Shown here: positions 49,301 through 52,300 of the stretch, one piece after another
Layout of the letters: each line of letters starts with the position of its first letter
Position numbering within the stretch: position 1 is the stretch's first letter
NCBI GenBank assembly: GCA_964016885.1
Contig: OZ024741.1
Span: forward strand, 399,776,001 to 399,840,000
Direction: 5' to 3'
Origin: Eledone cirrhosa
Lineage: Eukaryota
Length of the DNA stretch: 64,000 nucleotides
Notes under the pieces: model-generated
Databases searched by the model: none
Seen by the model: the letters and a program-made list of their open reading frames with translations, nothing else
Told to the model about the DNA's origin: nothing
Program-made: the position numbers and the translations under genes

Positions 49301-52300
49301 TGCTCTCCAGCCATCTATTTAAAGCTGTATAAAGCTATGGTACAACCACACTTGGAATTCGCATCATCAGTCTGGAACCCCTATCTTGCTTAGAACATTG
49401 ACCTCTTGGAAACTGTTCAGAGATGTGCAACTAAGCGCATACCCTCCATCAGACACCTACCATACTCTGAATGCCTTGCTTCCCTGGGCATGGATTCATT
49501 GAAACTCTGACGTCTGTACTATACATACACTTTTGATGAGTTGTAGTGCACCTAAGAACTGTACACAATATTTTCATTATTATTTTTTTTTATATATATA
49601 AATATATCACTGATGATGTCACAGGTGTGTGAAAAAAGAATCCTGAGAAACTATATTTATATTTTTAACTGTTGATCAATCAATGATAAACATTGATTGC
49701 CAACTGAATATATCATTTTCATCATCATCATTTCATTTTACGTCCACTTTTCCCTGCTTGCAAGGGTGGGACAGGAATTGATGCTGGCTTGATTTCTACA
49801 GCTGGATGCCCTTCCTAACACCAACCTCATTTACAGTGAGTGCTGGGTGCTTTTTTGTCGTGGCGCCTCCACGACCACTTTGAAGTGGAATGATATGGAC
49901 CCTAGTCCCTATCATCTCATTTCTACAGCTGAGTAAACTGGAGCAATGTAAAATAAAGTGTCTTGCTCAAGGAAACAACACATCACCCGGTCTGAGAATT
50001 GAACTCACAACCTTTCGATTGCAAGGCCAATGCTCTAACCCCTAAGCCATGTGCCTCCATATATATATATATATATAAGTAAGATGTACGATAGGTCGTA
50101 TGTGAATCGCGATGATCACGTCTGACCTACCAAATATGTGACGGTAGCTAGTTAAGCTCTATGCGTATACGCAGAGCAGAAATATTAGTGAAAAAGAACA
50201 AAGGAACTATTATGACATTATAACAAGTTTATTGCCGACAGCTGTTTCGTCCGACCACATGGTGGGACTTTTCAAGGCATATAACATGTGATTGTAAGAT
50301 CATTATTTACATCAACGTATCACTCAAGGCTAGCAGTTTGAAATTGTGGTATACATCAGCAGCTCCGCTTGTATAGTTGGGGTCTATATTCTAAGGGGGG
50401 CTCTTTTATATTAGTTGTCGGGGTCAGGGATTGAAGGTTAAAAATTAGATAATATATAATTTACGCATTAACAGTAAACTAAACTAATTTTTAACCTTCA
50501 ATCCCTGACCCCGACAACTAATATAAAAGAGCCCCCTTAGAATATAGACCCCAACTATACAAGCGGAGTTGCTGATGTATACCACAATTTCAAACTGCTA
50601 GCCTTGAGTGATACGTTGATGTAAATAATGATCTTACAATCACATGTTATATGCCTTGAAAAGTCCCACCATGTGGTCGGACGAAACGGCTGTCGGCAAT
50701 AAACTTGTTATAATGTCATAATAGTTCCTTTGTTCTTTTTCACTAATATATATATATATATATATATTATTATATGCTTTTTGTCATGACTCCTACACAA
50801 CCACTTTACACTATGAACTGGTTGCTTTTTGTCATTACACCTACACGACCACTTCACAGTGTGGGCTGGAGTGGTTATATTCAGCTCTTTTTGTCAAATA
50901 TTACCATATCAAGATGATCATTTGTAGAGGTACATGGCCAAGTGGTAAGTGTGATGAACTTACAATCATAAGGACACAGGTTCGATTCCTGGACGCAGTT
51001 GTGTTATGTATTCTTAAGCAAAACACTTTATTTCTCATTACTTCTGTGTACTTAGCTGAAAACGAGTACCAGTAATAGCTTGGATTTTAACCCTACGGTG
51101 GACTGGCGTCCTGTCCAGGGAAGAGACTTGTACTCTAAGTTGTTTAATGTCACAGAAACCAGGTTAAGCAATGGCCTGATGATCCTACAGACATGAGACA
51201 GACTTTAAACCTACGACAGACTGGCATCTTGTCCATGGGTTATTATCATTATTTTCACTATTTGTACAAATATGCAACTTAACAATATTCTGCATATCCG
51301 CAATTGACAATCCATTTAATGCTGAAACCAGTATTGTAAATAAATTAATGTTTTTAAATTTCACTAAAAATATCTCTTCAACATTTTCTACAGAAAAAAT
51401 CTTTTTCCTTTATATATATATATATTGTCATATGGTTTTTGTCATTACACCTACACAACCACTTCACAGTGTTGCTTAATGCCACGGAGACTAAGATAAG
51501 CACTGGCCTGGTGAGCCTCTGGGCTCAAGAGAGACTAACCCTGCACTGGCATCCTGTCCAGGGGAAGTTGCTTACTCTACAGAAACTGGGATAAGCACTG
51601 GTCTGGTGAGTCTCTAGACTCAACTTAGACTTAAGACTATTTTAGAAGATGATAATTAGATTTGTTAAATAACTTACTTGTGGCAGTTGGAGTTGGCATA
51701 GTTTGGGTTGTCCATTGAGTCCCTGAAGAATATCAGGCAAAAATTATCAAAATATTTTCATTTTAATAACATTGTTTCTCTTGAGAAAAATTCAAAAAAC
51801 AACCAGAAAAATCTTTAATAAAGAAATACACTCTATTTTAATTAATGAAGAATTTTGAAATCTTTATAACATTATTAATTAAGTGGAAAGGCGGTGAATT
51901 GGCAATATCGGTAGAGGGTTGGACATGCTTTCCAGCATAGTTACGTCCCTTTATGATCTGAGTTCAAATCCCGCCGAGGTTAACTTTGCCTTTCATCCAT
52001 ACGGGGTCGATAAAATAAAGTACCAGTAATGTACTGGTTAATTGCTGGCCTTGTGCCAAAAGTAGAAACAATTATTAATTAAGTGGATTTGCAGTATCGG
52101 TAGAGGGTCGGACGCCATGCTTTGATGCAAAGAGTTACGGCCCTTTCCATTCTGAGTTCAAATCCCGCCGAGGTTAACTTTGCCTTTCATCCTTACGGGG
52201 TCGATAAAATAAAGTACCAGTAATACACTGGGTATTTGCTGGCCTTGTGCCAAAAGTAGAAACAATTATTAATTATTTCATTACTATGATAATAATTTAA

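Follow-up and report, generated by a model that had tools for sequence, protein, structure and literature searches.

The fold-back in the window (the whole 64,000-nt stretch of Eledone cirrhosa DNA that was analyzed) is a 5′-truncated insertion of an autonomous Hydra-clade Penelope-like element (PLE). Judged from its sequence and those of its relatives, it was probably generated by twin priming on a single element RNA, with one reverse transcriptase (RT) stationed at each of two hairpins; a probability of about 0.65 is assigned to this reading. The family identity, the intact copies with an RT and a GIY-YIG endonuclease, the two fixed ends, the rule by which these ends are paired, and the hairpin beside both of them were observed directly. 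Inverted pLTRs, paired opposite-strand hammerheads, and the U3-A8 ribozyme core are all already in print, and neither the architecture of the fold-back as first flagged nor its ribozyme variant is new. Within the Hydra clade, the element itself is a variant with a long UTR, a long tail, and a U3-A8 core. Inverted 5′ copies and a tail of 30–40 bp, often at one end only, were reported by Craig et al. 2021 (PMC8557442), who name the mechanism behind the tandem and inverted repeats and the one-sided tail as an open task; self-priming (Arkhipova et al. 2013, PMC3846280) and endonuclease-mediated resolution (PMC8557442) are the earlier explanations of PLE ends. For this question, a precise, testable model follows from the pairing of ends seen in three families together with the hairpin that adjoins each end.

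The preliminary description had reported a long fold-back at 50182–50749 with arms of about 266 bp, a 35-nt spacer, and about three differences, lying beside (TA)n tracts. The arms (50182–50448 and 50484–50749), the 35-nt interval, and the differences (one indel and two substitutions) were reproduced, and (TA)n tracts are present on both sides. The insertion really spans 50072–50749, however, and is longer by the 110 nt of a 3′ tail, and what was taken for a spacer is a continuation of the left arm into the body of the element (Table 1). If the right arm is numbered from p1 at its first base, the insertion contains, on the minus strand, p-35 to p376 (50483 to 50072) and, on the plus strand, p1 to p266. 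No microhomology was seen at the arm/spacer junction. The young age claimed for the insertion is borne out by its identity at 407 of 411 bases to the closest of 14 family loci compared. The two arms differ at p86, which is a common non-CpG polymorphism in the family (C in 72, T in 36). Rfam returned for the fold-back only miRNA-like matches that stem from the perfect hairpin, all below the gathering score.

Table 1. Features of the insertion and of the candidate host gene, in window positions.
Feature	Position	Strand	Basis
Long arm: 3′-terminal 412 nt of Hydra-clade PLE (3′ UTR 35 nt, pLTR p1–266, tail), ending in (TA)n	50072..50483	-	98.9% match to 3′ end of full-length copy L031; 407/411 to L008
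Short arm: tailless inverted pLTR p1–266; recurrent short end, joined to (TA)n	50484..50749	+	62/124 3′ termini in unbiased sample at p262–266
“Spacer”: element body directly upstream of pLTR, part of long arm	50449..50483	-	Precedes pLTR in reverse-complement in 28/29 other loci; absent in L002
Tail of 110 nt separating the two recurrent ends; its final bases run into the TA tract	50072..50181	-	Match to family copies and recurrent ends
Hairpin 1: GCUC, 4-bp stem-loop, UA bulge, GAGC; 4 nt 3′ of short end	50156..50177	-	Sequence comparison with family copies
Minimal type-I hammerhead, U3-A8 core, stem III ACAGCUGU	50233..50279	-	Descriptor; predicted cut after 50237
Minimal type-I hammerhead, U3-A8 core, stem III ACGGCUGU	50652..50698	+	Descriptor; predicted cut after 50694
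Left (TA)n target tract	50059..50077	.	Sequence
Right (TA)n target tract; target-site duplication unreadable inside TA tract	50746..50767	.	Sequence
Candidate host exon upstream of insertion, Cys-rich mucin/vWF-like gene	58606..58748	-	Sequence only, AG/GT borders
Candidate host exon downstream of insertion, TIL-like	46086..46285	-	Sequence only, AG/GT borders

An assembly artefact arising from chimeric fold-back reads is barely credible: the arms differ at three places, the tail is on one arm only, the flanks are not mirrored, and 55 other loci share the architecture, although no junction-spanning contig or read was present among the public-run records listed. Just as hard to credit is the view, taken in the preliminary description, that a non-autonomous fold-back retrozyme or MITE moves as a unit. 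The hammerheads, the young age, and the lack of an ORF in the window copy are all compatible with it. The 25-mer that covers the arm/spacer junction, on the other hand, occurs once in the 3.0-Gb genome, and the fold-back is therefore not mobile as a unit; in the sampled family loci every fold-back has its own junction, no tandem of 150–400-nt monomers exists at the locus, and an autonomous parent is present. Retrozymes are treated as PLE derivatives in the preprint of Li et al. 2026, and non-LTR retrozymes (PMC7229834; Li et al. 2026) share with the present insertion a type-I hammerhead and derivation from PLE pLTRs. They are, however, tandem non-autonomous monomers, whereas the present case is a single truncated insertion whose junction is found at no other place in the genome.

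A genome-wide search with the arm returned 1,245 candidate copies, and 899 exact matches were obtained for a 30-mer located immediately 3′ of the ribozyme. Each arm corresponds to the 3′ end of a roughly 5.3-kb unit that encodes an RT and a GIY-YIG endonuclease, in agreement with the proposed PLE derivation, and intact-frame copies of this linked master element were found elsewhere in the genome. A full element (L031) is composed of inverted pLTR, pLTR, ORF, 2.3-kb UTR, pLTR, and (TA)n. Partially tandem pLTRs, an inverted 5′ copy, and a one-sided tail were seen in L031, L073, L077/L078, and L083, and the matches were in minus-then-plus order in 19 of 75 clusters. One locus (L077/L078, C2:219146500-219166499) holds a head-to-tail tandem of three units with a period of about 5.26 kb. 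Among the matches listed, public sequencing runs of other organisms contain parts of the pLTR, and one has the same short end joined to TA.

Stop-free frames of 877–892 residues (RT and GIY-YIG) exist in four copies. The single ORF has a telomerase-like RT, with YRDD in the 877-residue frames; its AlphaFold model (pLDDT 84, built on 120 sequences) had telomerase RTs (TERTs) as its five best PDB fold matches, with E-values of 1e-8 to 3e-8. Sequence searches of the ORF against Pfam and the PDB gave no RT or GIY-YIG family match. The protein has 641 relatives that were found, and PF01541 is carried by 26–50% of the members of its Atlas look-alikes. The C-terminal GIY-YIG domain (a VVY..YVG motif with an R, E, N region) was aligned by eye to the rows of Fig. 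S7 of Craig et al. The GIY-YIG C-terminal remnant that had been suspected at the inner arm end is outside the ORF, 2,344 nt past the stop codon. A homodimer prediction for residues 1–480 scored 0.00, the alignment not having been used. One copy (L073:1866-4454) has long disordered R/N/T-rich inserts (residues 482–585 and 682–716) between thumb and endonuclease that recall the N-rich inserts of rotifer PLEs.

In the intact frames of this family (family 1), RWR is found in three of four and DKT in all four, the CxCx5C linker reads CNCRxKDKC, CxxC reads CSLC (three of four), and CxH reads SCPH; a Cx2-5CxxC finger had no match in these frames, and CCHH is also absent. Throughout the sampled loci the termini join TA runs. 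These motifs, the absent finger, and the insertion into (TA)n agree with the definition that Craig et al. 2021 give of the Hydra clade. The published members compared (PMC8557442; Hydra-1_Obim, Penelope-13_HM) have in common with this element the C-terminal GIY-YIG, RW(R/K), DKT, the CxCx5C linker, CxxC, CxH, no CCHH, the (TA)n target, and a 3′ hammerhead, and for Penelope-13_HM a 5′-truncated inverted copy at the 5′ end has been noted. The present unit (about 5.3 kb, with a 2.3-kb 3′ UTR) differs from the Hydra-clade units in print, which are mostly below 3 kb, as does its tail (110 nt, compared to 30–40 bp) and its U3-A8 core, where all Hydra cores in File S2 of Craig et al. are CUGANGA.

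The ends of the family were examined in two sets of loci. For set 1, the first 100 of the 899 30-mer matches were taken in position order and gave 75 clusters; three repeats of one junction in L129 were counted once. Set 2 comprised 39 tail-anchored loci from the first 100 of 519 matches, a choice that cannot reveal short+short events; L169 and L170, which came from another search, were dropped. In set 1, 123 of 124 3′ termini were located either at p262–266 (62, the short end) or at p374–376 (61, the long end). Two-ended events combined one end of each kind: 55 of 59 were long+short (39/41 in set 1 and 16/18 in set 2), none was long+long, none was short+short, and four had one end elsewhere. 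The same pairing was seen in nine of ten two-ended events of family 2 (the tenth was unscorable; 30 loci of 454 matches) and in all eight of family 3 (30 loci of 14,713 matches). No statement of a strict pairing of ends in PLEs was found in the literature searched, outside subscription papers and the supplements of Li et al. 2026. Tail-only insertions (about p260–376) between two TA tracts were also encountered (L205, L209, L216, L219, and L221). Family 3 (L303–L332) also has numerous very small fold-backs. Their two arms both end at the hammerhead's 5′ edge, some 30 nt beyond a TATA-like box, where transcription likely starts within the pLTR.

Paired arms share subfamily alleles: in 42 inverted pairs, 16 of 491 diagnostic cells differed, compared to 35% with shuffled pairing, and none of 2000 shuffles gave a value as low. 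The long arm stopped at p259–310 in 15 of 55 events, versus 3, 6, and 1 in the next three 52-nt windows. The short arm reached further upstream in 32 of the 55 events and the long arm in 22; the reach, as scored, was equal in one. This count disfavors a fold-back that copied itself, and it largely refutes self-priming, in which a cDNA snaps back and serves as its own template or an antisense RNA acts as its own primer (Arkhipova et al. 2013). Such a route is proposed in PMC3846280 and would suit the perfect palindromes present at some junctions (L158 at -14/-14 and L226 at 173/173). Nevertheless, each arm has sequence that is missing from the other, the long arm being always tailed and the short arm often the longer one upstream; self-priming is held to be very improbable.

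Under twin priming, the endonuclease would nick both strands of the (TA)n target, and the two target 3′ ends would pair with UAU at p266 and p373, sites that are 110 nt apart. Each hairpin copy is predicted to dock one RT. The two cDNAs would run upstream (here for 412 and 266 nt), stop, and be joined 3′ end to 3′ end; the product would be an inverted repeat with its arms head to head and just one of them tailed. Both hammerheads would simply be carried along with the copied pLTR. Where the long arm runs past the short start, twin priming would require strand displacement or a second template. Twin priming of this kind would explain why like-ended insertions are absent, why the arms share alleles, why long arms stop at the short site, and why only one side is tailed. 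In L1, twin priming, reportedly described by Ostertag and Kazazian in 2001, is said to involve two target strands that prime on one RNA and leave an inverted 5′ segment; the second site is said to be a chance internal match, and the segments not to overlap. Here, by contrast, each of the two sites is fixed, and the arms often show complete overlap.

Several observations count against twin priming or can be read otherwise. The long arm passes the start of the short arm in 38 of 55 events, the window locus included, and the window junction shows no microhomology. Family 3 keeps the end rule despite a degenerate second hairpin. The pile-up of stops at p259–310 could be plain stalling at hairpin 1, and concordance of the kind expected from a common template would likewise arise if a single source locus were dominant at any one time. 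The difference between the arms at p86 fits two templates as well as a later mutation. Poseidon_Ac, the PLE studied in vitro by Frangieh et al. 2024 (PMC11167929), resembles the present system, in favor of twin priming, in that AT-rich DNA is cut and extended on both strands and two internal RT start sites bound the tail; its bulk data, however, display no difference in start sites between the strands, which speaks against twin priming. The Poseidon_Ac starts are at one AC-rich stem loop and have no homology to the target, whereas the UAU sites here match (TA)n, are 110 nt apart, and have a hairpin each. No statement on twin priming in PLEs was found in the literature searched; subscription papers and the Li et al. 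2026 supplements were outside it.

The frequent passage of the long arm beyond the short site (38 of 55 events) is what would be expected if two templates were used, either by an asymmetric RT dimer or on tandem or circular RNA with two pLTRs, the long site being taken on one copy and the short site on the other. Head-to-tail tandems do exist (L077/L078, L083, and L084), and the window arms differ at one common polymorphism. Two templates offer no simple reason for long arms to stop at p259–310, though, and leave unexplained the same 5′ stop of both arms in many family-3 fold-backs; this arrangement is considered unlikely, if worth keeping in view.

In families 1 and 2, both ends are on UAU, 3–5 nt 5′ of the same bulged hairpin, which consists of GCUC, an inner stem-loop, a 2-nt bulge, and GAGC; its general form is RCUC..UH-GAGY. 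In both families, 55 nt separate the ribozyme cut site from the short end on its 3′ side. Hairpin 2 comes after the long end in family members that read through into a tandem copy; the window insertion lacks it. Family 3 has ACUC..GAGU at site 1, and its hairpin at site 2 is the degenerate one mentioned above. A sequence-only pattern was applied to 1.54 Mb of fetched sequence and gave 110 distinct matches, 31 of which had an inner stem of at least 3 bp; in three shuffles, 6, 7, and 8 of 123–129 matches had such a stem. UAU was found within 10 nt 5′ of 21 of the 31 stemmed hairpins versus 16 of 67 stemless look-alikes (p = 5e-5). In the 30 rows picked for alignment, 45 two-sided changes were counted (matched in 0 of 500 shuffles), a count that is partly circular in that the descriptor used for picking required the outer stem and two inner pairs; a hammerhead-like core lay upstream in ten of these rows.

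By eye, the hairpin is also found in published Hydra consensi from coral and sea cucumber (Hydra-2_Amil, Hydra-2_Ajap, and twice in Hydra-1_Ajap). Among those in File S7 of Craig et al. 2021, it is altered in Hydra-1_Crog, and no clear copy was seen in Hydra-1_Obim or Hydra-1_Amil. Many other hammerhead families of the E. cirrhosa genome are without it. An Rfam search with the bulged hairpin gave no match, and no description of it was found in the literature searched, which included a word search of the three closest papers and stood outside subscription papers and preprint supplements. Further copies from other families are located in the window at 58830–58900 (-), 10622 (+), 23158 (+), and 59711 (+); the 58860-type hairpin occurs 32 times in the fetched loci.

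The hairpins could instead mark endonuclease sites, with both cDNAs started at the long end and the tail cut off one arm at resolution. This follows the reading of Craig et al. 2021 (PMC8557442), who ascribe the one-sided tail to endonuclease-mediated resolution, and the D. virilis endonuclease needs the tail for recognition (as cited in PMC11167929). It is nonetheless judged improbable: RT start sites in vitro match both tail ends (PMC11167929), G-U pairs occur in the hairpin stems and suggest that the hairpin acts as RNA, and long arms stop at the short site.

Returning to twin priming, the chances are judged about even for a broader proposition drawn from these sequences, namely that an undescribed, clade-wide bulged hairpin, present twice per unit, docks two RTs on one RNA and that twin priming is the normal mode of insertion. 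If that is true, programmed twin priming would be how these telomerase relatives ordinarily insert, and it would explain the inverted pLTRs along with the one-sided tail. Because PLE RTs are the sister group of telomerase, an RNA docking element that sets the template start may bear on how telomerase RNA binding arose.

The minimal type-I hammerhead described for each arm was confirmed, with its UUGAAAA core, stem I (UGCC/GGCA), stem II (GUCC/GGAC), and GUC site; a strict descriptor that allows U3-A8 finds one per arm and gave 0.03 matches per shuffled 64-kb window (30 shuffles). The claim of a palindromic stem III holds for the left arm (ACAGCUGU) and fails for the right arm (ACGGCUGU). The latter is the family majority (G at the differing site in 98 of 102 arms), and the perfect palindrome is a rare family variant. 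A full-length family copy scored 20.1 bits (E = 0.033) against Rfam Hammerhead_1, below the gathering score of 34. Cleavage would need a dimer according to a folding model, which predicts no stem III in the monomer and eight pairs in the homodimer; stem III is 8 nt here, and two of its pairs in the dimer are G-U. A sister family with 59% amino-acid identity has a homologous ribozyme with a CUGAUGA core, that is, C3-G8. Between the two families, C3-G8 is replaced by U3-A8 and a stem-I U-A by C-G, and 48 of 48 cells are paired in what is a four-row alignment only. The common ribozyme variants of family 1 fall at N7 and in loop 2. Such common variants affect 0 of 30 hammerhead-constrained positions versus 21 of 227 others within family 1, a trend that is not significant (p = 0.07).

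Cervera and de la Peña 2014 (PMC4209133) report the U3-A8 core in Schistosoma PLEs, with about 1,300 matches, as well as dual opposite-strand hammerheads 100–700 bp apart and weak, dimer-only cleavage. The Cercyon PLEs of Schistosoma thus share with the present element the U3-A8 covariation, the dimer-dependent design, and the dual opposite-strand motifs; they differ from it in clade and host, in stem III (8 nt with two G-U pairs in the dimer here), and in that a sister family in the same genome here keeps C3-G8.

The ends of hammerhead-cut RNA were considered as insertion templates and rejected, there being no enrichment of junctions at the cut site. A pattern designed for the cut site only, with two non-family bases just before it, had two matches genome-wide, neither of which is a junction there, and stops within 3 nt of the cut site were found in 1 of 55 events, plus L005. 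This agrees with Frangieh et al. 2024 (PMC11167929), in whose study uncut RNA is the substrate and Poseidon_Ac has no need of hammerhead cleavage. Hammerheads are common in the E. cirrhosa genome; canonical-core examples from other repeat families lie in the window at 23418 (-), 19090 (-), 18458 (+), and 18773 (+). Further U3-A8 motifs belong to another family (L261 and L212), and a metagenomic Hydra element (L272:1695) has a U3-A8 hammerhead with a bulged hairpin about 100 nt further on.

The intron location proposed for the insertion, on the minus strand, is consistent with the Cys-rich candidate exons with AG/GT borders that flank it on that strand; one candidate exon had a weak TIL match (E = 0.0011, below the cut-off). 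The arms being head to head, the antisense arm is made first in transcripts of either strand. The calculated folding energy is about -517 kcal/mol for the fold-back region versus about -14 for the ribozyme. With the antisense arm transcribed first and the 266-bp duplex predicted to outcompete the ribozyme fold, the self-cleavage of the intron that had been envisaged is unlikely. Both hammerheads would be locked in the duplex, and the likely effect on the host would be long double-stranded RNA; that this duplex would be an ADAR or Dicer substrate, as was also suggested, is plausible. An insertion process of this sort fills introns with long perfect duplexes, family 3 alone having 14,713 exact matches in the genome, and is a likely source of the predicted editing and small-RNA substrates. 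The large Cys-rich gene appears to span 1108–61115 (-) of the window, with TIL-, vWC-, and LDLa-like exons by eye, and may be mucin- or SCO-spondin-like. LINE-type RT frames are also present in the window at 3310–5481 (-), 38176–41453 (+), and 47284–49400 (+), one of them being 723 residues long without a stop.
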